Program-made: the position numbers and the translations under genes
Shown here: positions 1 to 19,370 of the stretch, in pieces
How positions within the stretch are numbered: the stretch's first letter is position 1
Layout of the letters: every line of letters begins with the position of its first letter
NCBI RefSeq assembly: GCF_044324875.1
Contig: NZ_CP172187.1
DNA length: 64,000 nt
Source: Escherichia coli
GTDB taxonomy: Bacteria; Pseudomonadota; Gammaproteobacteria; Enterobacterales; Enterobacteriaceae
Strand: one strand, 5' to 3'
The notes under the pieces: generated by a model
Database searches by the model: none
Told to the model about the DNA's origin: nothing
The model's input: the letters and a program-made list of their open reading frames with translations, nothing else

Positions 1-993
1 TAAGGCTCTGCATGCGGCGGCAATAATGTCCCGGCTGTCCTGTGTGGGCAATGGAAGCTTTTCCACAGCGGCATTGCTGTAACAGGGTTCTTTTACTGCA
101 AAGGGGGATGTCCGTACAAATGTCGTCACCTGCCGGCAATACTGACGTTCCCCACGTAGTTTCTCTGCGGCCCGCTCTGCATACTGAACAACAGCCTGGT
201 GCATGGCATCTTTGTCTGTGATTCGTTCACCAAAACTGCGACTACAGACAATCTGCTGTTTTGCCGGTGGTGCTTCTTCCAGGGATATGCAGGACTCGCC
301 GTTGAGTTCGCGTACCGTACGCTCAAGAATGACGCTGAAGTTTTTCCGGATGAATGCCGTGTTAGCCTGCGCCAGCTGCAGTGCTGTGTTAATACCCAGC
401 GCATTCAGCTTTTCCGTCAGTCTGCGTCCTACTCCCCAGACCTCACCAACTGGCTGCAGCCCCAGTAGCTTCAAGGTCCGATTACGGTTTTCTGCCGTCA
501 GCGCGACCACTCCGGAAAACTGTGGCCATTGCTTTGTTGCCCACTGTGCACTTTTAGCCAGCGTTTTTGTAGGCGCAATGCCCACCCCCATGGTGAGTCC
601 TGTCCAGCTCTTTACCTGTTCCCTGAGCTGATGACCAAAAACCTCCGGAGAGATGCAATGATTTATCCCCCGCAAATCAATGAACATTTCATCAATTGAG
701 TAGGGCTCAACTGCGGGAGAAAGCGACTCCAGAACAGCCATAACCCGTTGGCTCATGCTGTGGTACAGCGCATAATTGCTGGAAAATACATGTATTTTCT
801 TCTCCAGGCGCATTTGTCTCACCTGAAACCAGGGCTGCCCCATTCTGATGCCAAGGGCTTTTGCCTCCGGGCTGCGCGCGATCACACAGCCATCGTTATT
901 GCTGAGTACGATGACCGGTTCGTTGCGAAGGTCCGGGCGGAAAACTTTTTCACATGAGGCGTAGAAACTGTTGATATCAGCCAGTGCAAACAT
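1..993 (-). CDS. impB: Y-family translesion DNA polymerase subunit (UmuC/MucB/ImpB-like); 5' part only, gene continues past the left edge
   Basis: Minus-strand ATG is the reverse complement of 991-993 and overlaps the impA stop by 1 nt. Hand translation gives MFALADINSFYASCEKVFRPDLRNEPVIVLS, the conserved UmuC-family N-terminus. Absent from the ORF track because there is no in-window stop; frame beyond ~30 codons not checked by hand. Confidence 0.65.
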   Translation of the reverse strand, partial: MFALADINSFYASCEKVFRPDLRNEPVIVLSNNDGCVIARSPEAKALGIRMGQPWFQVRQMRLEKKIHVFSSNYALYHSMSQRVMAVLESLSPAVEPYSIDEMFIDLRGINHCISPEVFGHQLREQVKSWTGLTMGVGIAPTKTLAKSAQWATKQWPQFSGVVALTAENRNRTLKLLGLQPVGEVWGVGRRLTEKLNALGINTALQLAQANTAFIRKNFSVILERTVRELNGESCISLEEAPPAKQQIVCSRSFGERITDKDAMHQAVVQYAERAAEKLRGERQYCRQVTTFVRTSPFAVKEPCYSNAAVEKLPLPTQDSRDIIAAACRAL

Positions 994-1430
994 CAGCGTA
1001 ACTCCCGCGTCCTGTGTATCACGTGAGTGACAACACCAAAAATACAGATGTTTTCCGGATACAGTGTGCGGAACTCCGGGCTGTCTGAAACCGGCTCCAG
1101 TGCCGGGCGTGGGCGCAACAGCAGTCGTTTGACGGTGAACTCACCATCGATCTCAGCGATAACGATGTCCCCGTGTTGTGGTTTTTCGGCCCTGTCCACT
1201 ACCAGCAGATCACCATTCTGCACGCCAGCCTGGTTCATCGATTCACCGCTGGCGCGCAGAAAGAAGGTGGCTGCAGGTCTGCTGATGCAATAGCTGTTCA
1301 GATCCAGTTCCTGCTCAGCATAATCAGTGGCAGGCGAAGGAAAACCGGCCTGGCAACGATCGGCAAACAACGGTCGCACGTAACTGTCATTGCCTGAAGG
1401 GTCAGCCGGACGGTGATAAACGGTACTCAT
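993..1430 (-). CDS. impA: UmuD/MucA/ImpA-like SOS mutagenesis protein (LexA-type self-cleaving S24 peptidase fold)
   Basis: 145-aa ORF with the conserved segment FFLRASGESMNQAGVQNGDLLVVDR and a catalytic-Lys region typical of UmuD/LexA C-domains; sits between impC and impB. Confidence 0.85.
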   Translation of the reverse strand: MSTVYHRPADPSGNDSYVRPLFADRCQAGFPSPATDYAEQELDLNSYCISRPAATFFLRASGESMNQAGVQNGDLLVVDRAEKPQHGDIVIAEIDGEFTVKRLLLRPRPALEPVSDSPEFRTLYPENICIFGVVTHVIHRTRELR

Positions 1431-1675
1431 GCTGCAGGCAGCCAGCTGTCGTCCTGCCAGATTTCTTCCAGCAGAGACAGGATACGTTCTTTATCCTTGT
1501 CGTTGCGGGCTCCTGTGACAGATACAGACGGGGCGCTGCCCTGGTCTATACGCAGCCAGATTTCCGGGTAGTGTGGTTTCAGACGTCGTTCGATTTCATT
1601 CTGTAGCGCCTGAAGTGTGCCTGATTTGAGGTTTTTTGTGCTCTGGCGGTCGAAAAGAATTTCAATGCGGATCAT
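1427..1675 (-). CDS. impC: ImpC-like small protein, first gene of the impCAB operon
   Basis: ORF-track frame 1427..1735; chosen start is the internal ATG (MIRIEILFDRQ...) preceded by AAGGGAG, which leaves the LexA box outside the CDS. 4-nt overlap with impA. Confidence 0.7.
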   Translation of the reverse strand: MIRIEILFDRQSTKNLKSGTLQALQNEIERRLKPHYPEIWLRIDQGSAPSVSVTGARNDKDKERILSLLEEIWQDDSWLPAA

Positions 1676-1698
1676 GTTCTCATCTCCCTTTTCTTTTG

Positions 1699-1714
1699 CT
1701 GTATGTATATACAG
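1699..1714. promoter_or_regulatory. LexA (SOS) operator upstream of impC
   Basis: Perfect palindromic CTGTATGTATATACAG (CTGT-N8-ACAG) 24 nt upstream of the impC start. Confidence 0.65.
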
Positions 1715-1984
1715 TATTCTAATAACTGAATCCACACACAGTCAAATGTCATTATTGTGACTAAAAAACGCTCAATTCTCTGAGGGTGTGGCTGTATGCC
1801 TGCTGTGGACTGCTGTGTCCAGCTTATCCACAGCATTTTGCGCACGGTTCTGTGAATAAAATACCTGGTTACCCAGGCCGTGCCGGCACGTTAACCGGGC
1901 TGCATCCAATGCAAGTGTGTCGCTGTCGCCGGCATCCTCACCAGGTCACTCAGCAGTCAGGGAGAAAAATGGCGGATGAAGTAT

Positions 1985-2340
1985 GACGGAGACGGTCGGG
2001 CAAGTGCCCGTTTCTTTTCCGACAAAGGATGTCGCCGTGCTCCTCTTTTTACTGCGCCGGCTGACGCGGCGCGGCATAAACGCTGCCTGTGGTCAGTGTC
2101 CCGCGTCCGGCGGGCACGGGACGGGCGCTTTTACCGCTCCCGGCTGGCGTCGGTGACAGTGTACGCCAGCCCGTCGCCCTTTTCTGATGAACGCCCTTCA
2201 AGCCGCTTTCGCGGCATAGCCTTGCCGTCAAAAAGACGACGGCTGCGGTATTCCACGGTCGGCCTGACCCGTTACCGGACGCGGTGAACAGCCCACAGGC
2301 AGCGGGGAACGGGCACCACAGGGGGGCCCTCCCGGTGCTC
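1985..2340. repeat. Leading-region repeat family A, copy 1 (~350 bp, GC-rich, hairpin-rich); candidate Frpo/ssi-like single-strand promoter
   Basis: Near-identical to 3290-3650 (shown by near-identical translations of ORFs 1976..2287 and 3248..3592 and by direct reading); ends immediately upstream of the ATG at 2343. Confidence 0.8.
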
Positions 2341-2342
2341 CT

Positions 2343-3284
2343 GTGAGGAGAATTCCCATGCCAAACTGGTGCTCAAATCGTATGTATTTTTCTGGTGAAC
2401 CAGCACAGATCGCTGAGATTAAACGACTGGCCAGCGGTGCAGTCACACCGCTTTATCGCCGCGCCACAGATGAAGGTATTCAGCTGTTTCTGGCCGGTAG
2501 TGCCGGACTTCTGCAGACCACTGAAGATGTGCGGTTTGAACCATGCCCCGGACTGACGGCTGCCGGACGTGGTGTTGTATCGCCGGAGAATATCGCGTTC
2601 ACCCGCTGGCTGACACACCTGCAGAACGGTGTGCTACTGGATGAAAAAAACTGCCTGATGCTGCATGAACTCTGGCTGCAGAGTGGTACTGGCCAGCGTC
2701 GCTGGGAAGGATTACCGGATGAGGTCAGGGAAAGCATCACCGTGCATTTCACCGCCAAAAGAGGTAACTGGTGTGGCTTCTGGAGTAACGAGGATGTATC
2801 GGTGTGGTGGAACCGTCTGTGTGACAATGTACTGCCGGAAAAAACCATGCCGTTTGACCTGCTGACGGTTCTGCCCACCCGCCTGGATGTTGAAGTGAAT
2901 GGCTTTAACGGTGGTGTTCTGAACGGTGTTCCTTCTGCGTATCACTGGTATACGGAACAGTATGGCGTGAAGTGGCCTGTGGGGTATGAGGTGAATATCA
3001 GCAGTCAGGGAGACAACTTCATTCAGGTTGATTTCGACACGCCGTGGTGTCAGCCGGAAAGCGACGTTATTGCAGAATTAAGCCGCCGTTTCAGTTGCAC
3101 ACTGGAGCACTGGTATGCCGAGCAGGGCTGCAATTTCTGTGGCTGGCAGCGATATGAGCGTGGAGAGCTTGTTGATGTCCTGTGGGGGGAATTGGAATGG
3201 TCTTCCCCGACAGATGACGATGAGCTGCCGGAAGTCACCGGACCTGCGTGGATTGTCGACAAGGTGGCGCATTACGGTGGATGA
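2343..3284 (+). CDS. Hypothetical leading-region protein (313 aa; Cys/Trp-rich), function unknown
   Basis: Long ORF immediately downstream of repeat A copy 1; alternative start ATG at 2358 (MPNWCS...). No motif I can assign. Confidence 0.55.
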   Translation: MRRIPMPNWCSNRMYFSGEPAQIAEIKRLASGAVTPLYRRATDEGIQLFLAGSAGLLQTTEDVRFEPCPGLTAAGRGVVSPENIAFTRWLTHLQNGVLLDEKNCLMLHELWLQSGTGQRRWEGLPDEVRESITVHFTAKRGNWCGFWSNEDVSVWWNRLCDNVLPEKTMPFDLLTVLPTRLDVEVNGFNGGVLNGVPSAYHWYTEQYGVKWPVGYEVNISSQGDNFIQVDFDTPWCQPESDVIAELSRRFSCTLEHWYAEQGCNFCGWQRYERGELVDVLWGELEWSSPTDDDELPEVTGPAWIVDKVAHYGG

Positions 3285-3289
3285 ATTCT

Positions 3290-3650
3290 GACGGAGACGG
3301 GCGGGCAACCGCCCGTTTCTTTTCCGACAAAGGATGTCGCCGTGCTCCTCTTTTTACTGCGCCGGCTGACGCGGCGCGGCATAAACGCTGCCTGTGGTCA
3401 GTGTCCCGCGTCCGGCGGGCACGGGACGGGCGCTTTTACCGCTCCCGGCTGGCACCGGTGACAGTGTACGCCAGCCCGTCGCCCTTTTCTGATGAACGCC
3501 CTTCAAGCCGCTTTCGCGGCATAGCCTTGCCGTCAAAAAGACGACGGCTGCGGTATTCCACGGTCGGCCTGACCCGTTACCGGACGCGGTGAACAGCCCA
3601 CAGGCAGCGGGGAACGGGCACCACAGGGGTGCCCTCCCGGTGCCTTCTGT
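3290..3650. repeat. Leading-region repeat family A, copy 2
   Basis: Direct repeat of 1985-2340 with a few substitutions; ends at the RBS (AAGGAGG) of the methyltransferase gene at 3668. Confidence 0.8.
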
Positions 3651-3667
3651 AAGAGAAGGAGGCTTTT

Positions 3668-4351
3668 ATGTCCCGTTTTATCCTGGGTGACTGCGTGCGA
3701 GTTATGGCCACGTTTCCGGACAATGCTGTCGATTTCATCCTCACCGACCCGCCGTATCTCGTCGGTTTCCGTGACCGTTCCGGGCGCACCATTGCCGGTG
3801 ACGTTAACGATGACTGGTTGCAACCTGCCAGCAATGAGATGTACCGCGTACTCAAAAAAGACGCTCTGTTGGTCAGCTTCTACGGCTGGAACCGTATTGA
3901 CCGCTTTATGGCGGCCTGGAAACGCGCCGGATTCAGCGTGGCAGGGCACCTCGTGTTCACCAAAAACTACACATCCAAATCTGCGTATGTCGCGTACCGC
4001 CACGAATGCGCCTACATCCTGGCAAAAGGCCGTCCACGTCTGCCACAAAACCCGCTGCCGGACGTGCTGGGCTGGAAATATTCGGGCAATCGTCATCACC
4101 CGACGGAAAAGCCTGTTACCAGCCTGCAACCGCTGATTGAGAGCTTCACACACCCGAACGCAATTGTGCTGGACCCGTTTGCAGGCAGCGGCTCAACCTG
4201 CGTTGCCGCCCTCCAGTCCGGACGCCGGTATATCGGTATCGAGCTGCTTGAGCAGTATCACCGTGCCGGACAGCAACGACTGGCTGCCGTTCAACGGGCC
4301 ATGCAGCAGGGGGCCGCGAATGATGACTGGTTTATGCCGGAGGCTGCGTAA
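3668..4351 (+). CDS. Orphan DNA methyltransferase, beta-class (N6-adenine/N4-cytosine type; DPPY motif precedes the SAM-binding FAGSGST motif)
   Basis: 227-aa ORF with TDPPYLVGF near the N-terminus and DPFAGSGSTCVAA near the C-terminus; no adjacent restriction endonuclease gene. Confidence 0.85.
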   Translation: MSRFILGDCVRVMATFPDNAVDFILTDPPYLVGFRDRSGRTIAGDVNDDWLQPASNEMYRVLKKDALLVSFYGWNRIDRFMAAWKRAGFSVAGHLVFTKNYTSKSAYVAYRHECAYILAKGRPRLPQNPLPDVLGWKYSGNRHHPTEKPVTSLQPLIESFTHPNAIVLDPFAGSGSTCVAALQSGRRYIGIELLEQYHRAGQQRLAAVQRAMQQGAANDDWFMPEAA

Positions 4352-4573
4352 ATGAACTATGCCGGACACGAAAAACTTCGCGCCGAAGTGGCGGAGGTGG
4401 CCAACACCATGTGTGACCTTCGGGCCAGGCTGAACGATATGGAGCATCGCTGTCGTTTTGATTCCGATGTGCTTGTTGAACGCCTGACACGCCAGACGCT
4501 GTATCGCGCCAATCGCCTGTTTATGGAGGCGTATACCGAAATTCTTGAACTGGATGCGTGCTTCAAAGATTAA
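4352..4573 (+). CDS. Hypothetical small protein (73 aa)
   Basis: ATG abuts the methyltransferase stop; same strand as all leading-region genes. Confidence 0.5.
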   Translation: MNYAGHEKLRAEVAEVANTMCDLRARLNDMEHRCRFDSDVLVERLTRQTLYRANRLFMEAYTEILELDACFKD

Positions 4574-4585
4574 GGGGGAGACGAA

Positions 4586-5020
4586 ATGTACGGAACATGC
4601 GAAACACTCTGCCGGGAGCTGGCAGCGCAGTATCCGGGAGACACGCCGCTGATGCTGGTTGTCTGGTCCCCGGAAGAGATTCAGGCACTGGCTGACGGTA
4701 TGGAAATTTCTCTGACCGATCATGAAATCAGGACCGTCCTGTCGCGCCTGGAGGACATCCCGGAAGACCAGCGGAGTGAATCCGGTATTTCTTCTGCCGC
4801 TGCGATGGAGATTATCAGCAACGTGAGCGAAAACCGCCAGGTGACCGTCCCTGCTGAACTGCTGGCGTCCCTGATTCAGACCGCCGAACAGGCACTGTGG
4901 AAACGTGAATGGGCCGCCCGTGATAACGGCCTTGCCGTCCCGGAATGTGTTACCCGCCGTCAGGCAGTGATTAATCAGGCCCGCACCCTGCTGAAAAACA
5001 ACACACACGAAAACAACTGA
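4586..5020 (+). CDS. Hypothetical acidic protein (144 aa); paralog of ORF 6497..6919
   Basis: Shares the R(Q/H)VTVPA motif and a similar N-terminal pattern with ORF 6497..6919; RBS GGGGGAG upstream. Confidence 0.6.
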   Translation: MYGTCETLCRELAAQYPGDTPLMLVVWSPEEIQALADGMEISLTDHEIRTVLSRLEDIPEDQRSESGISSAAAMEIISNVSENRQVTVPAELLASLIQTAEQALWKREWAARDNGLAVPECVTRRQAVINQARTLLKNNTHENN

Positions 5021-5134
5021 TGTTATCGCCGCCTGCCCTCTGCCATTCAGAGACTGACCGGAACCGGGGCGGAACTGGTACTGTCCGGCAGTCAGTGGCA
5101 GTCGCTGCCGGTACTTCCGGCAGACGGAACGCAG

Positions 5135-5608
5135 GTGTCTTTCCCGTATGCCGGAGAATGGCTGACCGAAGACGAAATCAGGGCTGTTCTTGATGCGGTG
5201 CACGATGCGGTACGAAGCATCTGTTACCAGGTGGCAGAAGATACGCGGCGTATCCGTGCGGCGCTGACCACCACCGGTCAGACGTTGCTGACCCGCCAGA
5301 CGCGCCGCTTTCGCCTGGTCGTGAAGGAAAGCGATCATCCCTGCTGGCTCGATGAAGATGACGAAAACCTGCCCGTAGTGCTCGATGTCATCGTGAACCG
5401 GGGCGCACGTTTTTCGGCAGTGGAAATGTACCTGGTCAGCGATTGTATTGAGCATATCCTGTCCAGTGGGCTGGCCTGCGATGTGCTGCGTATACCGGAT
5501 GAACCGCCCCGCCGCTGGTTTGACCGTGGTGTTCTGCGGGAGGTGGTCCGGGAAGCCCGGACCGAAATCCGCAGCATGGCGGATGCCCTGGCAAAAATCC
5601 GTAAATGA
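5135..5608 (+). CDS. Hypothetical protein (157 aa)
   Basis: Co-oriented ORF; no recognisable motif. Confidence 0.5.
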
Positions 5609-5749
5609 TGACACTGGCGGGGTAAATCCCCGCCTTTTTCCTGCCGGTCCCCGGACAGAGCACAAAGGAAGTCGCCGCCGGCTCCGCTTTACCCGGCCAT
5701 GCGGGGCATGGCCTTGTGGATTTTCAGTTATGTGGCCTCAGCGTCGTGT

Positions 5750-5990
5750 GCGGGCTGTGCCGTGCCTCCATCGTAGCCGGGCTTCTGCGGGCGGGTTGCA
5801 AGGTAAGGTGAACCGCTGCGGTCACCCGGTCCCTCCTTCCCGTCTGCCGTGATTTTCCGGTCGTTCACCCGCTCAGATTTCGCGGTCTCACCCTCCAACT
5901 CCCGCCAGCCGTGTGCGTCAGGCTGCGGCTTCCCTTGCGCCCTTGCAACCCTGCAGGCCCGGCAAAGATGGAGGCACGGCACCGCCCGGT
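5750..5990. other. Long-range inverted repeat in a GC-rich 415-bp intergenic region upstream of klcA; candidate single-strand hairpin promoter/ssi element
   Basis: GCCGTGCCTCCATC (about 5763) pairs with GATGGAGGCACGGC (about 5968) about 190 nt apart, with further local palindromes; no ORF of note. Confidence 0.4.
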
Positions 5991-6024
5991 GTCGCGGAAT
6001 ATGTGAACAACGGAGGAAAACATC

Positions 6025-6450
6025 ATGCAATATGCGAAACCTGTCACTCTGAATGTTGAAGAGTGCGACCGTCTGTTTTTTCTGCCTTACCTGTTTGGCC
6101 AGGATTTTCTGTATGCCGAGGCATCTGTGTACGCGCTGGCGAAAAAAATGATGCCGGAATATGACGGCGGATTCTGGCACTTCATCCGCCTGCCGGACGG
6201 TGGCGGTTACATGATGCCGGATGGCGACCGTTTTCATCTGGTCAACGGTGAAAACTGGTTTGACCGTACGGTCAGCGCCGATGCCGCAGGCATCATTGTG
6301 ACTTCCCTTGTGATTAACCGTCAGTTGTGGCTGTACCACGACAGCGGTGATGCAGGACTGACTCACCTGTACAGGATGCGCGATGCGCAGTTGTGGAGCC
6401 ACATCGAATTTCACCCCGAATGCAATGCGATTTACGCGGCACTGGACTGA
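6025..6450 (+). CDS. klcA: KlcA/ArdB-family anti-restriction protein
   Basis: 141 aa with family hallmarks FLPYLFG...[16 protein letters not shown]...[11 protein letters not shown], matching my recollection of KlcA/YfjX-type proteins. Confidence 0.8.
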
Positions 6451-6496
6451 TTAACGGACGGGGCGGCAATGCCGCCCCTGTAAAGGAGACGAGAAC

Positions 6497-6919
6497 ATGT
6501 ACTGTACTGTTAAAGAAATTATCCGCGAAGTGCTGGATACAGACGTGCCGGACAGTGAATGCGTTTTTGCCGTGGTGCTGACCCGTGGGGATGTGCGCCA
6601 CATAGCTCAGGACTGGAGTCTGGCAGACGATGAGCTGGAAACCGTCATGCAGCGGCTGGACGATGCCTTTGAGCATGGTGCGGATGTCAGCGTTGTTCAC
6701 GACGTTGTTCGTGAACTGATGGAAGAAAAGCGCGCCAGCCGTCATGTGACAGTCCCGGCGATGATGCTGGAAAAAGTGATGGCGCTGGCAGGCAGTGAAA
6801 TGAAGCGCCTGTATGCCGTCGGAAGTGAGAACGGGGGCGACGGTGACGCATTCGTCAGGGAGGAACGCGAAGCAATGGACGTTGTGTTACAGGCGCTGGA
6901 CGGGGAGACGATGTCATGA
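6497..6919 (+). CDS. Hypothetical acidic protein (140 aa); paralog of ORF 4586..5020
   Basis: Shares the RHVTVPA motif and N-terminal pattern with ORF 4586..5020; RBS AAGGAG upstream. Confidence 0.6.
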   Translation: MYCTVKEIIREVLDTDVPDSECVFAVVLTRGDVRHIAQDWSLADDELETVMQRLDDAFEHGADVSVVHDVVRELMEEKRASRHVTVPAMMLEKVMALAGSEMKRLYAVGSENGGDGDAFVREEREAMDVVLQALDGETMS

Positions 6920-7107
6920 ATATCAGCACAGAAACCCGCGAAATTCTGCGTAATTACAGGGCCGTGATTAATGCGCGGCGTCGTGAAATGGGGCAGAAAC
7001 CGCTCACCACCGCGCAGATTGTTGATGAAATCTGCGATTTTGTGGCGAATCAGCAGGCGGTTTTCCTGGGCGGTCACTACATCTTACAGGGCAGCAGAAA
7101 CAGGTGA
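6916..7107 (+). CDS. Hypothetical small protein (63 aa)
   Basis: ATG overlaps the preceding stop (ATGA), suggesting translational coupling. Confidence 0.4.
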   Translation: MNISTETREILRNYRAVINARRREMGQKPLTTAQIVDEICDFVANQQAVFLGGHYILQGSRNR

Positions 7108-7295
7108 TACAGGGGCAGGCGGTGGAGGCCGCCTGTCAGCCCGCGCGAAAACCCCTGGCAGGCTGACGCCTGCCGGAAGGGAAGCGGGCCACGCTGGCGC
7201 GTCGCCCGTTACCCTTCCCGTCTGTGATGTGTCTGACTCAGGAGTGTTTCTTTCTTATGTTGCGGAACTGTTCCTGATGTTGTTGTTGTTCCTTT

Positions 7296-7895
7296 ATCTG
7301 CTGCTCTGATTCTGACTACTGCAGTGTTGTTCTGTCTGCCGGGCGCACCTTCGGCTCCCGGCTGCCTGGCGGCATCCGGTCGTCAGGCCCGACTCCGACA
7401 GGCAGCTGCTGGCGCACCTGCCAGTCTCCGCCGAACCCGCTGGCGCGGCTTCGGGCTGCCGCTACGGTCCGATGCGTGAAAACCCCGGGCTTGCAGCGAC
7501 CGTTCTGGTCGCGCCGCCTCTGTCGCGCCGTGGCCTGCGCTCCAGGCATCCCGGCAAAAAGACGCCGGGATGTAAGGCGCAACGCCGTTTCGCAAACCGC
7601 GCTTCACGTCGTTGCTGCGGGTCCCTGCTCATTGCCTGCCGGGTGCCACACACCCGTATGAGTCCCTGTCGCCGGGGGCATAGACAGCCACAACCTGCCG
7701 CACTGACTGTCCAGGGTAAATGAACAGCCCACAAAATTTTTTACCCAAAACCCGGTAAAAAATTTTGCGTTCTGCCCAGGACAGGTGCGTCAGGCCGTGG
7801 CAGTGATGCCCCTTGCGGCGAAGGTTCTCAAACGGGTGAAGTTCATACCACAGGGAATACAGCAGCAGGTTCCCGCGAAACGTCAAAACCGCGGC
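7296..7895. repeat. Leading-region repeat family B, copy 1 (~600 bp, GC-rich); candidate Frpo/ssi-like single-strand promoter
   Basis: Shares ...CTGATTCTGACTACTGCAGTGTTGTTCTGTCTGCCGGGCGCACCTTCGGCTCCCGGCTGCC... through ...CGCGGCTCCCGAAACTCAAC with copies at 10651-11280 and 18720-19340. Confidence 0.8.
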
Positions 7896-8148
7896 TCCCG
7901 AAACTCAACGGGTGATGTTCTTTAAAAATCAGGATTTATTTCAGGCTCCGGCAATACGCATTTATGTGTTCTGTCAGTCATCCGGCTGGCAGGTAATGAG
8001 AACGCAGGAACAGAAGGAGGAAAACACCGGAGAACGTCAGACGCAGATATGAAAAAAGCAGGCCGGGGAGGACCTGCTTAATCCACACCGCAAAAACTGT
8101 TCGAGCAGTTTCTGCGGTTCCATTCAACAGTCATAAGGAGTTTCATTT

Positions 8149-8379
8149 ATGACGGTAAGTATTGTTTCACCTTCCGCAGCGGCTGTAAAGCCCCGCCGTC
8201 ATCCCCGTTTCAGACGCGAAGACATCCCCGCGCCGGAAATTGACCCCGTGCTGAAAGCCTTCGGGCGACACATAGCCCGGAGTTTTCACCGGGGGCGTGG
8301 TGTACACATCCCCGCCATGAAAAACACGGCCTTCGGGCAGGTGCTCCGCACACTCGAACTGAAACGCGCTTTTAACTGA
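8149..8379 (+). CDS. Hypothetical small basic protein (76 aa)
   Basis: ORF downstream of repeat B copy 1 with RBS AGGAG. Confidence 0.4.
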   Translation: MTVSIVSPSAAAVKPRRHPRFRREDIPAPEIDPVLKAFGRHIARSFHRGRGVHIPAMKNTAFGQVLRTLELKRAFN

Positions 8380-8430
8380 TGAGGTGAGCCGCCCCGCGAG
8401 GGGCGGCAACAGATGGAAGGAGAACATTTT

Positions 8431-9792
8431 ATGACATTAGCAGCAATCACCATGACCGCCCCGGAAGCCGCCAACCCTGTGCAGATGTACCGCGCGACCT
8501 ACTCACCGGATGACAACAAACTGCGCCTGTATGCCGCGTCACGTCTTGACCCGGAGACGTATAAAAAAGTGCATGATGCCGGTTTTCGCTGGGCACCCAA
8601 ACAGGCGCTGTTTGTCGCGCCAGCCTGGACACCGGGCCGGGAAGACGTGCTCCTCTCACTTGCCGGAGAGATTGAGGATGAAGACAGCACGCTCGCTGAA
8701 CGTCAGGAAGCACGGGCGGAGCGGTTTACCGGATACAGCGGAAAGCGGGCCAGTGAATCCGCACAGGCACTTGATGAAGTGGAAAGACTGGCCGCGATGA
8801 TCCCGCCCGGTCAGCCCATTCTTGTGGGGCATCACAGCGAACGCCGCGCCCGTCGTGATGCGCAGCGTATTGAAAACGGCATGAAACGTGCCGTGATGCT
8901 CTTTGAGCGTGCGGAATACTGGGAGGAGCGGGCGCGGTCGGCACTGCTTCACGCGAAGTATAAAGAACGCCCGGACGTTCGCTGGCGTCGTATCAAAAAA
9001 ATCGAAGCGGATTTGCGCAAGGCTGAAAAGACCATCGCGCAGTCGCAGAAATATCTGACGATGTGGCGGGCTGAATCGCTGGATCTGAATATGGCAAAAC
9101 TCATCAGCAGTCATGACCATATCAGCGCCTGTTTCCCGCTGGACAGGTATCCGCGCCCGGCAGAAAAAAGCCAGTATGAAGGAAGTCGATCGTTATGGTC
9201 GGCCCTGGATGATGACATCATCACCACGGAGCAGGCCCGCGAAATTGCGATCCGCTGTCATGAACGGCAGATTCAGCATCAACAACGCTGGGTTAACCAC
9301 TATCATAACCGCCTGATCTATGAGCGTGCCATGCTGGACGAAAGCGGCGGCGTGGTTACCCGGACACAGGATTTTGAGCCGGGCGGACAGGTTTTCAGCC
9401 GGGGCGAGTGGCTGACCATCATCCGCGTGAACAAAAGCAACGGGGCGGTGAGTTCAGTCACAACGCCGAATTACAGTTTTCTCGGGTACAGCGGCACGAT
9501 GAAAGTGACACCCGATCGCATCACGGACTACAAAGCACCATCGGCAGAAGAGGCTGCCGTCGCCAGTCAGGCCGCGAAGCGTCCGCCGGTAGTCAACTAT
9601 CCGGGGGAAGGTTTCCGGGAAATGACAAAGGCGCAGTGGGCCGCCCTGCCCCGGGACTGTAAGGCCGTGCGCAGTGTGGCAGAGACAGAAGACCACGGGG
9701 CATACCGCTACCGCCGCACAATGGACAATAATTTCCGCCTGGTGAATGTGTATATCACTGACATGAAAATCACGGAAATCCCACAGAAATAA
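8431..9792 (+). CDS. Conserved hypothetical leading-region protein (~453 aa)
   Basis: ORF-track frame 8413..9792; ATG at 8431 follows AAGGAGAA. Charged and coiled-coil-like; no catalytic motif recognised. Confidence 0.55.
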   Translation: MTLAAITMTAPEAANPVQMYRATYSPDDNKLRLYAASRLDPETYKKVHDAGFRWAPKQALFVAPAWTPGREDVLLSLAGEIEDEDSTLAERQEARAERFTGYSGKRASESAQALDEVERLAAMIPPGQPILVGHHSERRARRDAQRIENGMKRAVMLFERAEYWEERARSALLHAKYKERPDVRWRRIKKIEADLRKAEKTIAQSQKYLTMWRAESLDLNMAKLISSHDHISACFPLDRYPRPAEKSQYEGSRSLWSALDDDIITTEQAREIAIRCHERQIQHQQRWVNHYHNRLIYERAMLDESGGVVTRTQDFEPGGQVFSRGEWLTIIRVNKSNGAVSSVTTPNYSFLGYSGTMKVTPDRITDYKAPSAEEAAVASQAAKRPPVVNYPGEGFREMTKAQWAALPRDCKAVRSVAETEDHGAYRYRRTMDNNFRLVNVYITDMKITEIPQK

Positions 9793-9838
9793 GGTATATC
9801 CCCCCGGGAAATCCCCGGGGGATGACGGAGATAATGAC

Positions 9839-10402
9839 ATGCACAGTCAGTTAAGAGAACGTATCCGGCTGATGCGCGCAAGGCTGGATAACGCCGCGCC
9901 GGTTGCTGAAATCCGGGCTGAATCTCAGCTTTTTGTGACTCCTGCCCCGGTCTGTGATCGCCTGGTGACGCTGGCGGAAATCAGCAACCGTGATCACATT
10001 CTGGAACCCTCTGCCGGCACCGGGGCCATACTGCTGGCGATTCGGGATACCGCGCCGGAGGCCATGTGTGATGCGGTGGAGATTAACAGCGGGCTGGTCC
10101 GGTATCTGCGGGAAAATTTTAACGGTGTCAGGGTACAGTGTGGCGACTTCATGGAATGGCAGCCGGTGCAGTATTACAGCCGGATCATTATGAATCCGCC
10201 GTTCAGTCACGGGCAGGATATCCGGCATATCCTGCGGGCTTTTTCCCTGTTGCGTCCGGGGGGCGTTCTGGTTGCCGTCTGTCTCAACGGGCCGCGCCAG
10301 CAGGAGAAGCTGTTACCGTTTTCTGACGTCCGCGAGGAGCTGCCGCGCGGCACGTTTGCTTATACCGATGTCCCGACGATGATTATTCGTTTGCGTGCCT
10401 GA
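9839..10402 (+). CDS. Small SAM-dependent methyltransferase (187 aa); probable second orphan N6-adenine DNA methyltransferase
   Basis: SAM-binding-like LEPSAGTGAILLA followed by IMNPPF (NPPF-type motif IV); too short for a separate target-recognition domain, so substrate is uncertain. Confidence 0.65.
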   Translation: MHSQLRERIRLMRARLDNAAPVAEIRAESQLFVTPAPVCDRLVTLAEISNRDHILEPSAGTGAILLAIRDTAPEAMCDAVEINSGLVRYLRENFNGVRVQCGDFMEWQPVQYYSRIIMNPPFSHGQDIRHILRAFSLLRPGGVLVAVCLNGPRQQEKLLPFSDVREELPRGTFAYTDVPTMIIRLRA

Positions 10403-10581
10403 TGACACAGGGCTGGCGGGAGGATAAATGCCCGTCTGTCCGCGCCGGGAAAAGACCGCGCGCCGGTGGCGCTGAAAGGGGCCGCGCTCACGCGCCGCCC
10501 CTTTCATTACGCGGACGTTCTGATGGGGGCTTCTGTCTTTTCAGACCTGTCATTTGTCTGTTACTGATGATGTTGTTGTTC

Positions 10582-10647
10582 CTGCTACTGCTACTGCTAC
10601 TGCTACTGCTACTGCTACTGCTACTGCTACTGCTACTGCTACTGCTC
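10582..10647. repeat. Hexanucleotide tandem repeat (CTGCTA)x11
   Basis: Eleven perfect units counted directly at the 5' edge of repeat B copy 2; the equivalent position in copies 1 and 3 is not expanded. Confidence 0.9.
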
Positions 10648-10650
10648 TTC

Positions 10651-11280
10651 TTTTTCCTGCTGCTCTGATTCTGACTACTGCAGTGTTGTTCTGTCTGCCG
10701 GGCGCACCTTCGGCTCCCGGCTGCCTGGCGGCATCCGGTCGTCAGGCCCGACTCCGACAGGCAGCTGCTGGCGCACCTGCCAGTCTCCGCCGAACCCGCT
10801 GGCGCGGTTTCGGGCTGCCGCTACGGTCCGATGCGTGAAAACCCGGCTTGCAGCGACCGTTCCGGTCGCGCCGCCCCTGTCGCGCCGTGACCTGCGCTCC
10901 AGGCATCCCGGCAAAAAGACGCCGGGATGTAAGGCGCAACGCCGTTTCGCAAACCGCGCTTCACGTCGTTGCGGCGGGTCCCTGCCCGTTGTTGTGTCCG
11001 GTGCCATTCACCTGTTTAAGCCCCTGTCGCCGGGGGCTGATACAGCCACAACCTGCCGCACTGACTGTCCAGGGTAAATGAACAGCCCACAAAATTTTTT
11101 ACCCAAAACCCGGTAAAAAATTTTGCGTTCTGCCCAGGACAGGTGCGTCAGGCCGTGGCAGTGATGCCCCATGCGGCGAAGGTTCTCAAACAGGTGATGG
11201 TGAATACCGGAGGGAACAAAGAGCAGGTCCCCGCAAAACGTCAAAACCGCGGCTCCCGAAACTCAACAGATGATGGGGGC
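10651..11280. repeat. Leading-region repeat family B, copy 2, directly upstream of ssb
   Basis: Direct sequence identity with copies 1 and 3; the 3' end ...CGAAACTCAACAGATGATGGGGGCTGAAAAC is shared exactly with copy 3. Confidence 0.8.
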
Positions 11281-11308
11281 TGAAAACATCAACAGAAGGA
11301 GACACATC

Positions 11309-11347
11309 ATGGCAGTTCGTGGCATTAACAAGGTCATTCTTGTCGGT
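11309..11347 (+). CDS. ssb: Plasmid single-stranded DNA-binding protein, exon 1 (codons 1-13, MAVRGINKVILVG)
   Basis: ATG with RBS AAGGAG; the 13 codons are the canonical SSB N-terminus; the reading frame is interrupted by GTGCG at 11348. Confidence 0.8.
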
Positions 11348-11960
11348 GTGCGCCGTTGAAGCGCGGTGTTTTATGGAGTGTTGCCTGAAAAGCAACATGG
11401 CTTAGTGGTATAGCCATTGCATACTGTGGTTAGCCTTGCTTGGTAACAGGCTCGGAGATCCTGAAAAGGAGAGGTGAACATAGCATCCACAGAAAAGGGT
11501 GGTGAATATGGAAATCGTTATAAGTATCACCATTCAATGCAAGATGTATATGGATAAACTGGGTTTGTTGAAGTCGAGATCTATGTGGGAAACAGGAAAC
11601 CAATAACGCAGAACGATTGAAGCGTTATTCCCGTACTAGCACAAGAAATCCGTCCGACGTTGATTGTGACCACTCTAACGGGCCAGCTATTGATGAAATA
11701 GTTAAACGATCGAAAGACATCCTAAGTACATCGCATCTCCACACCGTGAAACTACGGGACTACCTAAACTGGATTTATACCCAGCATGGTAGCGGAGTCT
11801 CCATAGTACTCAAGGTCGGCCTGTAATGGGTTCCGGCAGTCCGCATTATACGGAAGCAGCAAAGGTATAAATCAACCGGAAGGAAGATGAAAGCCTCACA
11901 GTGCTGCGGGGAAGGGAGACAGTTGTTAGATACATCAATCTCTAAGAGGAGGGTTAGCCA

Positions 11961-13862
11961 ATGCTGCCTGATGAACTTGAGAAAAGATTAGATGGAATTG
12001 AGGATGCTTCAAAAAAAGGGTATCCAGTACGTAATCTATACAAAATTGCGTGTGAGCCCGGACTGTGGCTGCAAGCCTACGTGAATATACGGGCCAATGC
12101 AGGTGCACTGACTCAAGGTGTATCAACAGATACCATTGATGGCTTTTCTATCGAAAGAGCAGAGAAGCTGGCAAAAACATTGCGGAGTAGAGAATACGTA
12201 GCGAAACCTGTACGCAGAGTTCAGATCCCAAAAAAGGACGGAAAAACCAGACCGCTGGGGATTCCAGGTGGAGACGATAAACTGGCGCAAGAAGTAGCAA
12301 GAATTATTCTGGAAAGGGTTTATGAACCAGTATTCTCTGAACACTCTCATGGATTCAGACCAAAACGTTCGTGTGAAACTGCGCTCAGATCTATTCGTCC
12401 AGTCTGGAACGGAGTTAAATGGATCGTGGATGTTGATATCAAAGGTTTCTTTGACAATATCCCCCACAAACTATTGCTGAATACACTGGCAGAGAAAATT
12501 AAGGATAAGAATTTCCTGAAATTAATCGAACAGTGGCTGAAGGCAGGATATGTGGACAATTGGAAATACCATCGCTCATATTCTGGCACGCCACAAGGTG
12601 GGATAATTTCTCCCTTACTGGCAAATATATACCTCGACAAACTGGACCGTTTTGTAGAACAGAATTTAATTCCTGCATATACAAGCGGTACAAAACGAAG
12701 AGCGAATCCAGATATGAACAGGCTGGCCCATAAGATTCATAAACTACGAAAGAAAGTAGACGGTATGGCAACTGATTCTGAATCAGAAAAAGAAGCCATA
12801 AAGAAAGAAATTGAACGACTGCTTGAAGAAAAACGTTCTATACCATCTCAGGTCATGAACGATCCAAACTTCAGGCGTATGTACTATGTTCGATATGCTG
12901 ATGACTTCGTAATCGGTGTCATCGGCTCGAAGAAAGATGCTGAACATATATCAAGACAGGTCAGAAACTTTATTACTACTTCACTGGGATTGGAAGTTAA
13001 TGAAGCAAAGACCAGGATCCGCCATATCTCAGAAGGAGTTAATTTTTTAGGCTATGAAATCAGACAGGCAGATGCAAAGAAATTGCTGAAGCAGAAAATG
13101 CAAGGGCGGCACGCTCTCCGGAGATCCACCACAGGAATTGTGCAGCTCTTCGTTCCTGACAATATAGCCGCTAAATTTTGTCACCAAAAGAAATATGGCT
13201 GTTATGAGAATGTGAAGGCTGTACATCGTTCAAGTCTACAAAATCTCAGTGAAGCTGAAATTGTTCTGACTTTCAACGCGGAAATGCGCGGATTGGCGAA
13301 CTACTACAGTCTGGCGCTGGACATGAAATATAAATTATCAAAATTATATTTCATATGGCAAATAAGCCTTTTTAAGACCCTGGCGAATAAACGACGTAGT
13401 TCAGTGAATAAAGTCGCCAAATCGCTACGGCAAAATAATGGAGATCTGGCTATTACCGTTCAGGCCAAAAATGGATCCCGAAAGATTGAGGTTTTCAAAC
13501 TCAAACATGTCAATCGCAACCGAACAACGATTGTCGATACGGAACCGAGAACCGCACATATCACAACCCGCACAACAGAGATCATGCGTCGATTAGGGGC
13601 AAGGATCTGCGAGTATTGTGCGAAGACTGGGCGCTGCGAAGTACATCATGTCAGAAAGCTAAAAGACCTGAAGAAAGGTCGTAAGGCCGGATATAAACCC
13701 AGCTTGTGGCAACTAATGATGATCGCACGCCGCCGGAAAACGATGATTTTGTGCGCAAGTTGCCACGACAAGTTACATAGCGGAAAACTACCCGATTTGA
13801 GACAGGAAAAGGGAAGAATACTCCTGCAACCACCTGTCTCAAGCGGGGATTCTGCTAAATGA
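11961..13862 (+). CDS. Group II intron-encoded protein: reverse transcriptase, maturase (X) and HNH endonuclease domains
   Basis: 633 aa with RT motifs (LGIPGGDDKLAQE, SHGFRPKRSCETAL, FFDNIPH, GTPQGGIISPLLANIYL, YVRYADDFVIGV) and a C-terminal Cys/His HNH-like cluster (CEYCAKTGRCEVHHV...CASCHDKLH). Confidence 0.9.
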   Translation: MLPDELEKRLDGIEDASKKGYPVRNLYKIACEPGLWLQAYVNIRANAGALTQGVSTDTIDGFSIERAEKLAKTLRSREYVAKPVRRVQIPKKDGKTRPLGIPGGDDKLAQEVARIILERVYEPVFSEHSHGFRPKRSCETALRSIRPVWNGVKWIVDVDIKGFFDNIPHKLLLNTLAEKIKDKNFLKLIEQWLKAGYVDNWKYHRSYSGTPQGGIISPLLANIYLDKLDRFVEQNLIPAYTSGTKRRANPDMNRLAHKIHKLRKKVDGMATDSESEKEAIKKEIERLLEEKRSIPSQVMNDPNFRRMYYVRYADDFVIGVIGSKKDAEHISRQVRNFITTSLGLEVNEAKTRIRHISEGVNFLGYEIRQADAKKLLKQKMQGRHALRRSTTGIVQLFVPDNIAAKFCHQKKYGCYENVKAVHRSSLQNLSEAEIVLTFNAEMRGLANYYSLALDMKYKLSKLYFIWQISLFKTLANKRRSSVNKVAKSLRQNNGDLAITVQAKNGSRKIEVFKLKHVNRNRTTIVDTEPRTAHITTRTTEIMRRLGARICEYCAKTGRCEVHHVRKLKDLKKGRKAGYKPSLWQLMMIARRRKTMILCASCHDKLHSGKLPDLRQEKGRILLQPPVSSGDSAK

Positions 13863-13888
13863 GTTTATCCCCAATAAGCTAGCAATGG

Positions 13889-13926
13889 AGAGCCGTATGC
13901 ACTGAAAGGTGCACGTACGGTTCGGA
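13889..13926 (+). ncRNA. Group II intron domain V (catalytic hairpin)
   Basis: Matches the conserved domain V consensus as I recall it (GAGCCGUAUGC...GCACGUACGGUUC), about 80 nt from the 3' splice site. Confidence 0.7.
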
Positions 13927-14008
13927 GGGGGGGTAACGGTGATCTAACTCAAGATAAGCAGGACATATTCGCCATTTATCTTGAAAGACCACACGTACCC
14001 TACCCTAC

Positions 14009-14497
14009 CGTCTGGGAAAAGATCCGGAAGTCCGTTACATCCCAAACGGGGGCGCAGTGGCAAACCTGCAGGTGGCCACGTCAGAAAGCTGGCGCGACAA
14101 ACAGACGGGGGAGATACGGGAGCAGACAGAATGGCATCGCGTGGTGCTGTTCGGCAAGCTCGCGGAAGTGGCTGGTGAGTATCTGCGCAAGGGCGCGCAG
14201 GTCTACATCGAAGGTCAGCTTCGCACCCGTAGCTGGGAGGATAACGGTATCACCCGTTACGTCACCGAAATTCTTGTTAAGACCACGGGCACCATGCAGA
14301 TGCTGGGACGTGCCGCAGGTACTCAGACTCAGCCGGAAGAGGCGCAACAGTTCAGCGGTCAGCCTCAGCCGGAATCACAGCCGGAACCGAAAAAAGGAGG
14401 CGCGAAAACGAAAGGCCGTGGACGTAAGGCCGCGCAGCCGGAGCCTCAGCAGCCGTCTGAACCCGCGTATGACTTCGATGACGACATTCCGTTCTAA
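14009..14497 (+). CDS. ssb: Plasmid single-stranded DNA-binding protein, exon 2
   Basis: In frame with ORF 14057..14497 ([19 protein letters not shown]...DDDIPF, acidic SSB tail); upstream in-frame codons [17 protein letters not shown] continue the SSB OB-fold. Confidence 0.8.
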
Positions 14498-14510
14498 CGA
14501 AAGACAGTGA

Positions 14511-14786
<276 letters not shown>

Positions 14787-19340: not shown

Positions 19341-19370
19341 GGCTGAAAACCAGAGAGAGGAGAAAGCTGG

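Follow-up and report, generated by a model that had tools for sequence, protein, structure and literature searches.

The closest described relative of the first enzyme analysed here is the DNA methyltransferase M.EcoGIX, the product of the gene at 54782-55465 of plasmid pESBL-EA11, with homologues in F and R64 (PMC4288162). M.EcoGIX introduces m6A specifically into single-stranded DNA (ssDNA) at SAY, and the protection that it confers depends on orientation (PMC7736820). The original strain is unmodified in ordinary growth, and the enzyme has no conventional recognition sequence and acts on single strands only (PMC7736820, PMC4288162). A deletion mutant transfers more poorly into EcoGIII or EcoRI recipients (PMC4288162). 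The gene is induced early from an upstream class 3 ssDNA promoter mapped by 5'RACE (PMC12672017). An anti-restriction role for an enzyme of this type is already known. A second group of plasmid proteins, the YdbA and YdcA families (1957 and 1913 members), was placed by Samuel et al. at the adjacent median ORF positions 11 and 12. Our literature search recovered no functional study or experiment on either family, and methyltransferase surveys of E. coli strains that draw on REBASE include the M.EcoGIX homologue and no YdcA-type enzyme.

The window, a stretch of 64,000 nucleotides of Escherichia coli DNA, belongs to an IncF conjugative plasmid of the R100/F type and represents its leading (first-transferred) region. 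The original prediction had placed two unrelated orphan methyltransferases in an early-expressed region, and the surroundings bear this out: the order is umuD-dinI ... ssb-parB-psiB-psiA-hok/sok-SLT, then traM and nic at ~21.49 kb, the gene order being that of pO86A1, F and pESBL. Positions 1-12000 are matched by at least 5000 PLSDB records. A pattern match and a reading of the sequence place TTTTGCGTAGTGTGT/GGTGCTTTT on the minus strand at 21488-21502, which we take, from the F and R100 oriT sequences, to be an R100-type nic. With nic on the minus strand, it follows that the minus strand is the one transferred and the template for both methyltransferase genes. The claim that neither has a cognate restriction gene nearby also stands, as the collinear plasmid pO86A1 has no annotated restriction endonuclease over 35 kb. 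The features around the first gene are:

1984-2335, minus strand: second copy of the class 3 element, directly 5' of the DUF1281 gene at 2343-3284 (repeat alignment)
3285-3640, minus strand: hairpin element 5' of MTase1, similar in sequence to the class 3 ssDNA promoter of M.EcoGIX (alignment, fold)
3668-4351, plus strand: MTase1, predicted beta-class N6-adenine DNA methyltransferase, M.EcoGIX orthologue (YfeA of F, YfbB of R64) (ORF, NCBIfam, Pfam)
21488-21502, minus strand: oriT nic region, presumably R100-type (pattern match, sequence read)

Both open reading frames have exactly the boundaries first given, and their DPPY and NPPF motifs were confirmed. Since plasmid homologues number at least 5000 for each, with dN/dS within 0.16-0.30 against diverged plasmids, these are not chance ORFs; they are real but ordinary leading-region components, and the finding overall is ordinary and mostly known. 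In the MTase1 product (227 aa), DPPY occupies residues 27-30 and the FxGxG SAM motif (FAGSG) residues 171-175, and this placement of motif IV N-terminal to motif I gives the beta-class order. The protein matches Pfam N6_N4_Mtase (8e-38) and, over its full length, NCBIfam PRK13699 (488.8 bits, cut-off 244). To the pESBL-EA11 enzyme it is identical at 210 of 227 residues (93%) along its entire length, with the beta-class DPPY architecture in common; the 17 substitutions fall mainly in the N-terminal 60 residues. The neighbours umuD-dinI-DUF1281-MTase-DUF1380-klcA/ardB are also common to both, although MTase1 is borne on an IncF and M.EcoGIX on an IncI1 plasmid; M.BceJIII was named beside M.EcoGIX as a closest system. 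MTase1 is the IncF orthologue of M.EcoGIX and, by orthology, very probably an early-made enzyme that methylates ssDNA at SAY and partially shields the entering plasmid from recipient restriction. Of the earlier proposal that it evades restriction by pre-methylating DNA, the evasion therefore survives through the published enzyme, but the pre-methylation does not: that enzyme is reported to act on the entering ssDNA in the recipient (PMC4288162, PMC7736820).

The element 5' of MTase1 matches the sequence upstream of M.EcoGIX in pESBL at 98% identity over 352 nt and the F equivalent at 96%. The minus strand of 3285-3667 has a folding energy of -110 kcal/mol (z = -6.8), and from the pESBL match we predict that this structure on the transferred strand is a promoter for rightward transcription. 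The copy at 1984-2335 is 98.3% identical to 3289-3640. In the parts of F, pESBL and pO86A1 compared, the element is single-copy; the window thus differs from pESBL in having an additional copy before the DUF1281 gene.

The second methyltransferase gene lies in a cassette accompanied by repeats of another kind:

7284-7932, minus strand: additional Frpo/ssi-type (class 1) ssDNA promoter repeat 5' of the orf76-ydbA-ydcA operon (repeat family, alignment, fold)
8053-8154, minus strand: AS-pc01 antisense RNA, overlapping the orf76 start codon (Rfam RF02875)
8149-8379, plus strand: orf76, a small conserved gene that opens the operon (ORF, conservation)
8431-9792, plus strand: YdbA, a DUF3560 protein and proposed non-catalytic targeting subunit of MTase2 (Pfam, fusion homologues)
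9839-10402, plus strand: MTase2 (YdcA), minimal gamma-order NPPF methyltransferase catalytic domain (ORF, profile and fold matches)
10643-11290, minus strand: Frpo/ssi-type repeat copy 5' of ssb, right boundary of the cassette (repeat family, alignment with F)

The Frpo/ssi-type family has three copies in the window. The one at 7284-7932 aligns with the F plasmid Frpo elements upstream of ssb and yfjA, and minus strand 7480-7940 folds at -137 kcal/mol (z = -10.5); early expression of ydbA-ydcA from it is probable. F and pESBL carry the ssb-upstream element without the cassette. Orf76 is 82% identical to its equivalent on a Serratia IncFII plasmid (dN/dS 0.13), and no orf76 was found beside the distant DUF3560-methyltransferase fusion genes. 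AS-pc01 scores 89.7 bits (gathering score 79) and encloses a terminator-like hairpin at 8079-8056 of the minus strand. Its overlap with the operon start was counted against expression of the cassette from the Frpo copy.

YdcA (187 aa) bears EPSAGTG at residues 56-62 and NPPF at 119-122, and this order makes it gamma-class. Its relation to MTase1 was fairly described as none at the sequence level: in BLASTP (E 0.067) nothing beyond the SAM-binding loop is detectably in common. It has every catalytic motif, and 14 homologues of 51-68% identity show no variation in any of them. In the AF2 model (pLDDT 86.5) the chain ends with the Rossmann fold. Pfam gives only generic matches (MTS 1e-7, RrnaAD 3e-4), and none of the curated DNA methyltransferase models in NCBIfam and Pfam reaches threshold (Pfam N6_Mtase E 0.12); plasmid records annotate the protein as a putative adenine DNA methylase. 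Its nearest relatives are DNA enzymes: M.TaqI, the best PDB sequence match (2e-5); the N-terminal domain of P1 DarB (residues 72-267; hhalign probability 92%, E 6e-7); Mad2 of MADS (PADLOC mad2, 1e-20); and PHROG internal domains of giant phage proteins (1e-32 to 1e-20).

The description of the short enzyme as devoid of a target-recognition domain holds for the polypeptide, but YdcA is not stand-alone: the DUF3560 gene 46 nt upstream, in a different frame and with a GC-rich palindrome in the gap, is fused to it in many relatives. The ydbA ORF opens at 8413, the annotated start in related plasmids being 8431, and residues 95-212 of YdbA match Pfam DUF3560 (1e-36). Among the 150 best-scoring YdcA cluster representatives, about 80 combine a full-length YdbA homologue with the YdcA domain in one chain of 600-700 aa, and in 81 of 255 retrieved proteins, mostly of 570-730 aa, YdbA homology lies N-terminal to that domain. 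At least 45 fusions have a full-length YdbA homologue as their N-terminal portion (E 1e-60 to 1e-143), and Pfam DUF3560 and MTS co-occur in 46 of 46 aligned ones. Fusions in AFDB come from Pandoraea, Pelobacter and a deltaproteobacterium, and there is also a 95%-identical, 624-aa Klebsiella fusion. The separate order ydbA-ydcA, with a ~47-nt gap, recurs at 60% identity in IncFII plasmids of Klebsiella and Serratia, and both genes are under purifying selection (dN/dS 0.08 for YdbA, 0.30 for YdcA). Because so many relatives fuse the two, YdbA and YdcA are, by homology, a conserved split enzyme with YdcA as its C-terminal catalytic half. YdbA, rich in invariant Arg and Trp residues, yielded no recognisable DNA-binding domain or structural homologue in Pfam, PDB sequence searches or fold comparison, yet it most likely supplies the target-recognition part absent from YdcA. 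The AF2 model of the concatenated pair has a pTM of only 0.58, without a confident interface; nonetheless, complex formation is likely.

On balance, we favour an M.EcoGIX orthologue and a split YdbA-YdcA anti-restriction enzyme acting side by side in the leading region. The minus strand would enter the recipient 5'-first from nic and serve as template for all rightward genes, with hairpin ssDNA promoters firing before the complementary strand is made. MTase1, like its published orthologue an early product of its own class 3 promoter, would methylate adenines in the loose SAY context on ssDNA, so that the new duplex would carry many hemimethylated sites and be partly protected against the restriction enzymes of the recipient. 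YdbA and YdcA, made from the extra Frpo-type copy, would assemble. In the complex YdbA would bind the substrate, a function missing from the Rossmann domain, and adenines of the incoming plasmid would be N6-methylated. That DNA is its substrate is fairly likely; that it thereby protects, as a second, independent anti-restriction device, has an even chance. F and pESBL transfer well without the cassette, an observation counted against this reading.

An RNA or protein substrate, raised as an alternative in the original prediction, is less likely. YdcA, alone or with YdbA as activator, could be an RNA N6-adenine methyltransferase like METTL5-TRMT112 or Erm/KsgA, one that adjusts translation soon after entry by modifying host rRNA or tRNA, or a transcript of the plasmid, and does not protect DNA. 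Part of this suggestion endures, in that the RNA m6A enzymes DIMT1, METTL5, PH1948 and TrmN stand level with DNA enzymes in the fold comparison and that the best sub-threshold NCBIfam matches are rRNA and protein methyltransferases. We still consider it unlikely: Erm, KsgA and PrmC lie far below curated cut-offs (33 against 212 bits for the RNA enzymes), DNA methyltransferase families match many orders of magnitude more strongly, and YdcA, stopping at the Rossmann fold, has no Erm/KsgA C-terminal RNA-binding domain. Moreover, its FVTP motif and LP.GTF tail align with M.TaqI and DarB, and its domain recurs within giant phage proteins and beside phage DNA-metabolism genes.

Alternatively, YdbA-YdcA might protect DNA or hinder host defence without catalysis, either in cis like DarB or by binding ssDNA or restriction complexes as a decoy; the methyltransferase fold would then serve mainly for binding. 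The similarity of YdcA to DarB, whose own methyltransferase is only putative in its record, is compatible with this, and the invariant Arg and Trp of YdbA would suit nucleic-acid binding; but the invariance of the SAM-binding and catalytic motifs argues for retained catalysis and YdbA is dissimilar to DarB (probability 0.2%), making it quite improbable. Slightly less probable still is that both are ordinary sequence-specific orphan dsDNA methyltransferases acting in the donor before transfer, a common mode among such phage and plasmid enzymes (reviewed in PMC11541004); the MTase1 orthologue is silent in ordinary growth and confined to ssDNA without a conventional site (PMC7736820, PMC4288162), ssDNA-promoter hairpins precede both genes, and YdcA lacks its own recognition domain. 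Least credible is a PrmC/HemK N5-glutamine or PrmA type protein methyltransferase targeting a host factor, a defence protein or YdbA, for although NPPF resembles the NPPY motif of PrmC, weak matches occur (NCBIfam PrmC 7e-7, HemK 8e-5; PDB HemK E 0.016) and one fusion homologue is source-named protein-L-isoaspartate O-methyltransferase, the scores are ~29 bits against a cut-off of 199, the HemK N-terminal domain is missing and the DNA methyltransferase similarities are much stronger.

Among the systems compared with the proposed split enzyme is METTL5-TRMT112, the eukaryotic 18S rRNA m6A methyltransferase. Its identity is 17%, and nothing but the class I fold suggests shared ancestry; it acts on RNA, and DUF3560 is no relative of TRMT112. 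Compared with M.TaqI and other gamma-class N6-adenine DNA methyltransferases (HsdM, M.BseCI, CamA, PacII M), YdcA is only 187 residues long, has neither a target-recognition domain nor a specificity subunit of known kinds, stays under the threshold of every curated DNA methyltransferase model and lacks a cognate nuclease. With P1 DarB, a known anti-restriction factor, it shares the methyltransferase domain, and with the giant polyvalent phage proteins it aligns within chains of 1200-3900 aa; all are borne on invading DNA. However, YdbA is unrelated to DarB, and neither a helicase nor any further DarB domain occurs in the pair. DarB also arrives as part of the virion, while YdcA would need synthesis in the recipient. 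Further counterparts are the uncharacterised single-chain DUF3560-methyltransferases of phages and mobile elements (for example UniProt A0A212J123, A0AAW7MGQ8 and A0R835; 570-730 aa), to which YdbA and YdcA align end to end at 41-50% identity, the domain order repeating the gene order: what is a single chain there is split into two genes in the window.

The two methyltransferase genes lie in DNA whose gene order is that of a classical IncF leading region. Window positions 1-12000 match at least 5000 PLSDB plasmid records at 90-99% identity, mostly conjugative plasmids of Escherichia, Klebsiella, Salmonella and Shigella with MOBF relaxases and F-type mating-pair formation. In the collinear plasmid pO86A1, the order runs from umuD through a dinI-like gene, DUF1281, a DNA methylase, small ORFs, an antirestriction protein of the KlcA/ArdB type and DUF1380 to DUF3560, a class I SAM methyltransferase, ssb, DUF905, a parB-like gene, psiB and hok, and then to DUF932, an SLT transglycosylase on the opposite strand, traM, traJ, traY and traA. 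The hok/sok (flm) post-segregational killing locus, expected in IncF leading regions, is marked in the window by an Rfam match to the sok antitoxin RNA (18118-18294, +). The adjoining sequences TTTTGCGTAGTGTGT and GGTGCTTTTGGTGG, on the minus strand at about 21488-21502, are what we take to be the R100-type nic sequence, which makes the minus strand the transferred one. This strand goes in 5'-first, in the direction of lower coordinates, and serves as template for every rightward gene, both methyltransferases included. From nic, it is about 17 kb to the end of the beta-class DPPY enzyme (MTase1; 3668-4351, +) and about 11 kb to the end of the NPPF enzyme YdcA (MTase2; 9839-10402, +), some 2.7 kb of the latter distance being a group II intron.

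Both ORFs stand where the original prediction placed them, and dN/dS values of 0.16-0.30 against diverged plasmids indicate that both are maintained coding genes. The description of the pair as unrelated is borne out, as they have just the glycine loop in common, and their orphan status likewise holds across five related plasmids. No restriction endonuclease gene is annotated near the methyltransferases in 35 kb of pO86A1, nor in the homologous regions of F, pESBL and Serratia/Klebsiella plasmids; with no adjacent cognate endonuclease gene annotated, a restriction-modification system is not indicated. The finding is thus real and correctly placed, and it describes leading-region biology of plasmids that is standard and, in large part, already published.

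MTase1 is an enzyme of the M.EcoGIX type, one more copy of a known enzyme to which nothing new is added here. In its 227 residues, the DPPY motif (27-30) comes before FAGSG (171-175), a version of the FxGxG SAM loop, which is the beta-class order. It matches Pfam N6_N4_Mtase (8e-38), the PADLOC model PDLC03228 (7.6e-143) and, over its full length (residues 1-227 of 227), the NCBIfam model NF010253 (PRK13699) with 488.8 bits, twice the curated cut-off of 244 bits. The E. coli O104:H4 plasmid pESBL-EA11 has one DNA methylase in the same neighborhood, at 54782-55465, an ORF named M.EcoGIX in the published gene table (PMC4288162); the two enzymes are identical at 210 of 227 positions, making them orthologs with 93% identity. 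M.EcoGIX, for which a DPPY to APPA mutation has been used, places m6A in a loose SAY context, acting incompletely and exclusively on single strands, and is silent in ordinary growth of its original strain (PMC7736820). A pESBL deletion mutant transfers more poorly into EcoGIII or EcoRI recipients, a defect that is gone once the donor also has the same restriction-modification system, and homologs are common in IncI1 and IncF plasmids, such as YfeA of F with 91% identity (PMC4288162). In transconjugants, the M.EcoGIX gene is switched on strongly within minutes by a "class 3" ssDNA hairpin promoter of its own, whose start site has been mapped by 5'RACE (PMC12672017). By analogy with the 93%-identical ortholog, MTase1 probably catalyzes the same single-strand SAY m6A methylation and protects the entering plasmid (PMC7736820, PMC4288162). 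The anti-restriction role proposed for the two enzymes thereby stands for MTase1 by way of the published work on its ortholog; the accompanying idea that the DNA is methylated beforehand in the donor does not, since the modification is described on the entering strand in the recipient. Papers on E. coli methylomes list the M.EcoGIX homolog and do not list a YdcA-type enzyme.

The location of MTase1 agrees with this assignment, as it is a leading-region gene templated by the transferred strand with a class-3 ssDNA promoter upstream. The 352 nt 5' of the gene share 98% identity with the pESBL element and 96% with its counterpart in F, and the transferred strand of this element folds at -110 kcal/mol (z = -6.8), far better than shuffled sequences. 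The element occurs twice in the window, at 1984-2335 and 3289-3640, as 98% identical direct repeats flanking the DUF1281 gene, whereas the compared parts of F, pESBL and pO86A1 have a copy upstream of the methylase only; judged from the sequence, the DUF1281 gene may thereby have been turned into an early gene in this plasmid.

The second enzyme, YdcA, also belongs to a known, abundant and annotated family, present in at least 5000 plasmid records at 60-100% identity. Its 187 residues have EPSAGTG (56-62) before NPPF (119-122), which is the gamma-class order; together with FVTP (32-35), E81, DF (103-104) and LPRGTF (168-173), they give the series X, I, II, III, IV ... VIII in one Rossmann domain. 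The catalytic motifs are invariant or nearly so in an alignment of 14 homologs with 51-68% identity and can be aligned to those of M.TaqI and DarB. The catalytic domain of M.TaqI is also the best sequence match in the PDB (E 2e-5), and the AF2 model (pLDDT 86.5), a bare Rossmann fold preceded by one 18-residue helix, retrieves M.TaqI, PacII M, HsdM and TrmN in Foldseek at a TM of about 0.70. PHROG matches (1e-32 to 1e-20) are always internal domains of very large phage proteins or families named DNA methyltransferase, and PADLOC matches comprise mad2 of the MADS system (1e-20) and type II methyltransferases (1e-11), the DNA methyltransferase families matched in both collections being uncurated. 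Among curated DNA methyltransferase models none is significant (Pfam N6_Mtase, E = 0.12; no NCBIfam DNA methyltransferase match), and the Pfam matches are generic only. YdcA looks like the catalytic domain of a DNA adenine methyltransferase.

The original prediction had allowed that YdcA might instead act on RNA or protein. An rRNA adenine dimethyltransferase of the Erm/KsgA type is what the best NCBIfam matches would suggest, but these are sub-threshold (Erm 33.4 bits vs. 212, KsgA 30.2 vs. 171), and YdcA stops at the last Rossmann strand, where the RNA-binding helical domain of these enzymes would follow. A protein glutamine methyltransferase of the PrmC/HemK type fares no better, with 29 bits for PrmC against a cut-off of 199.1 and a single 18-residue helix in place of the N-terminal HemK domain.

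The absence of a target-recognition domain, remarked on from the start, is confirmed by the bare Rossmann fold of the model and the lack of an HsdS-like gene; neither such a domain nor a specificity subunit of a known kind was found for YdcA, the candidate partner being YdbA, the DUF3560 protein encoded at 8431-9792 (+). A profile search with YdcA across 1.84 billion cluster representatives recovered 14,689 relatives (479 at E <= 1e-30), and many of the top matches are proteins of 570-730 aa with the YdcA domain at the C-terminus (E 1e-41 to 1e-49 for the C-termini of the fusions). With the 459-aa YdbA as a query, a local phmmer search detected homology N-terminal to the YdcA domain in 81 of 255 retrieved proteins, extending in about 45 of them over nearly the whole of YdbA (residues ~25-457; E 1e-60 to 1e-143); Pfam DUF3560 and MTS are both found in 46 of 46 aligned fusions. 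Such fusions are present in the AFDB from Pandoraea, Pelobacter propionicus and an uncultured deltaproteobacterium (A0A212J123). The AFDB also holds a single 624-aa chain from a Klebsiella pneumoniae plasmid (A0A6G9HLN5), 95% identical to the concatenated YdbA and YdcA of the window, which looks like either a recent natural re-fusion of the split genes, in a plasmid closely related to this one, or an artifact of annotation or assembly. The fusion genes adjoin genes for HNH, VapE, DnaB, integrase, KilA-N/ANT and LPD29 in phage-like or integrative contexts; DUF3560 is essentially absent from isolated phages, so that the fusion characterizes metagenomic and integrated elements, not cultured phages.

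In the window, ydbA and ydcA are in different frames, separated by 46 nt that contain a GC-rich palindrome as well as a GGAG ribosome-binding site. The palindrome, ATCCCCCCGGGAAATCCCCGGGGGAT (9798-9823), takes up most of this gap and falls exactly at the linker position of the fused homologs. The gene order is the domain order of the fusions and the adjacency is conserved: Klebsiella and Serratia IncFII plasmids have the same two-gene layout, with identities of 60% for YdcA and 76% for YdbA. This conservation and the dN/dS of 0.08 for YdbA point to a stable split and not to decay. A recent frameshift that broke a fused gene into pseudogene pieces would also leave two neighboring ORFs; against it, the two-gene form persists at 51-68% identity, the spacing is kept in the Klebsiella and Serratia plasmids, YdcA has a conserved helix of its own at the N-terminus and purifying selection acts on both genes. 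As for other partners, no Pfam domain recurs in 33 other N-terminally extended homologs, and orf76 (8149-8379, +), the first gene of the operon, is conserved within enterobacterial plasmids only. Hence, we predict that YdcA is one half of a split DUF3560-methyltransferase, the one addition of the present work, which would explain its missing recognition domain and means that the two genes should be studied jointly.

Both families have been listed before, in Supplementary Table 1 of Samuel et al., among those enriched in leading regions with the transferred strand as template (PMC11541004). There, family 26, an "adenine-specific DNA-methyltransferase", has 1957 members at a median ORF position of 11 from oriT, and family 28, DUF3560/YdbA, has 1913 members at a median position of 12; family 8, an adenine-specific DNA methyltransferase with 3753 members at a median position of 21 (PMC11541004), would, judging by its label, size and position, be the MTase1 type. 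Family 28 was annotated through structural similarity to A0A212J123 (PMC11541004), so the link between YdbA and a methyltransferase is implicit in that table. Our literature search on DUF3560, ydbA and ydcA returned annotations, CRISPR-spacer matches and one expression table, with no functional study, and no text reading the two proteins as a single split enzyme.

The orf76-ydbA-ydcA cassette is preceded by the first of three copies of a repeat of about 650 nt:

Frpo-type repeats in the window
7284-7932, first copy
10643-11290, second copy
18704-19353, third copy

All three share homology with the elements that precede ssb and yfjA in F, which are Frpo/ssi class 1 ssDNA promoters (PMC12672017, PMC11541004). 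On the transferred strand the first copy folds at -137 kcal/mol (z = -10.5). Neither this copy nor the cassette is present in F or pESBL, for which reason the cassette looks like a module with its own early promoter, and we infer that it is expressed early from this Frpo copy. The start codon of orf76 is overlapped by an Rfam AS-pc01 antisense RNA (8053-8154, -; 89.7 bits), which carries a terminator-like hairpin of its own; as this RNA would be made only after the complementary strand has been synthesized, it may serve as a shut-off following establishment. Just 3' of ydcA, where the Frpo-type repeat before ssb has its left edge, is a perfect hexanucleotide tandem repeat (CTGCTA x 10.8; 10582-10646); simple repeats of this sort vary between the left edges of the three Frpo copies. 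The plasmid ssb that follows (11310-14500) is broken after codon 13 (MAVRGINKVILVG) by a group II intron in the sense orientation (~11348-14006), with a 633-aa reverse transcriptase/maturase ORF (11961-13862) and an Rfam Intron_gpII domain (13888-14008). Production of SSB, one of the key early proteins of the leading region, would then depend on splicing.

The AF2 model of the concatenated YdbA-YdcA, built from the fusion alignment (pLDDT 90, pTM 0.58; relative domain placement unreliable, and no interface confidence), divides the chain as follows:

Parts of the concatenated YdbA-YdcA chain in the AF2 model
YdbA ~20-83, small alpha/beta domain
YdbA 88-212, three very long helices (the Pfam DUF3560 part)
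YdbA 219-304, helical segment
YdbA 320-446, beta-rich region
after the YdbA parts, methyltransferase domain

YdbA has no sequence homolog in the PDB, and structure searches returned family members or methyltransferase matches only. It has many invariant arginine and tryptophan residues, which would suit nucleic-acid binding. A rather improbable view of the pair is that it is no DNA-protecting methylase at all, DUF3560, as a substrate adaptor of a new kind, steering the minimal NPPF methyltransferase to host RNA or protein just after entry and so reprogramming the recipient in the first minutes of conjugation, for which the partner-methyltransferase pairing of TRMT112-METTL5 offers a model; in a milder version, DUF3560 would be a new ssDNA-targeting module, part of a second and independent system for single-strand methylation that is common among phages and mobile elements.

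For antibiotic resistance in E. coli and Klebsiella, IncF plasmids are the principal vehicles, and it is up to the genes of their leading region whether a plasmid withstands the defenses of the recipient after transfer. YdcA and YdbA are among the most abundant gene families of this region, with about 1900 members each in a 2024 Nature survey and at least 5000 plasmid records. The useful result therefore concerns the second gene: YdcA and YdbA as predicted halves of one enzyme, to be expressed jointly or as a natural fusion. Should this split enzyme methylate DNA, many clinical plasmids would have two methylation shields independent of each other, a point of relevance to efforts to stop plasmids from spreading by means of restriction or CRISPR-based tools.

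YdcA-like domains also occur in 226 isolated-phage records. In Vibrio phage 252E42.2, the domain lies inside a 3066-aa protein (record 5670-14870). More than 100 Vibrio phage genomes have it embedded in a hypothetical protein of about 3066 aa, and these giant multi-domain proteins resemble injected anti-defense proteins of the DarB type. YdbA is unrelated to DarB, the anti-restriction protein of P1; the likeness lies in the methyltransferase half, as the N-terminal methyltransferase domain of DarB (residues 72-267) aligns with the YdcA family profile (probability 92%) and has the motifs TP, LEPSAGTG, N(P/V)PF and LP.GTF in common with it.
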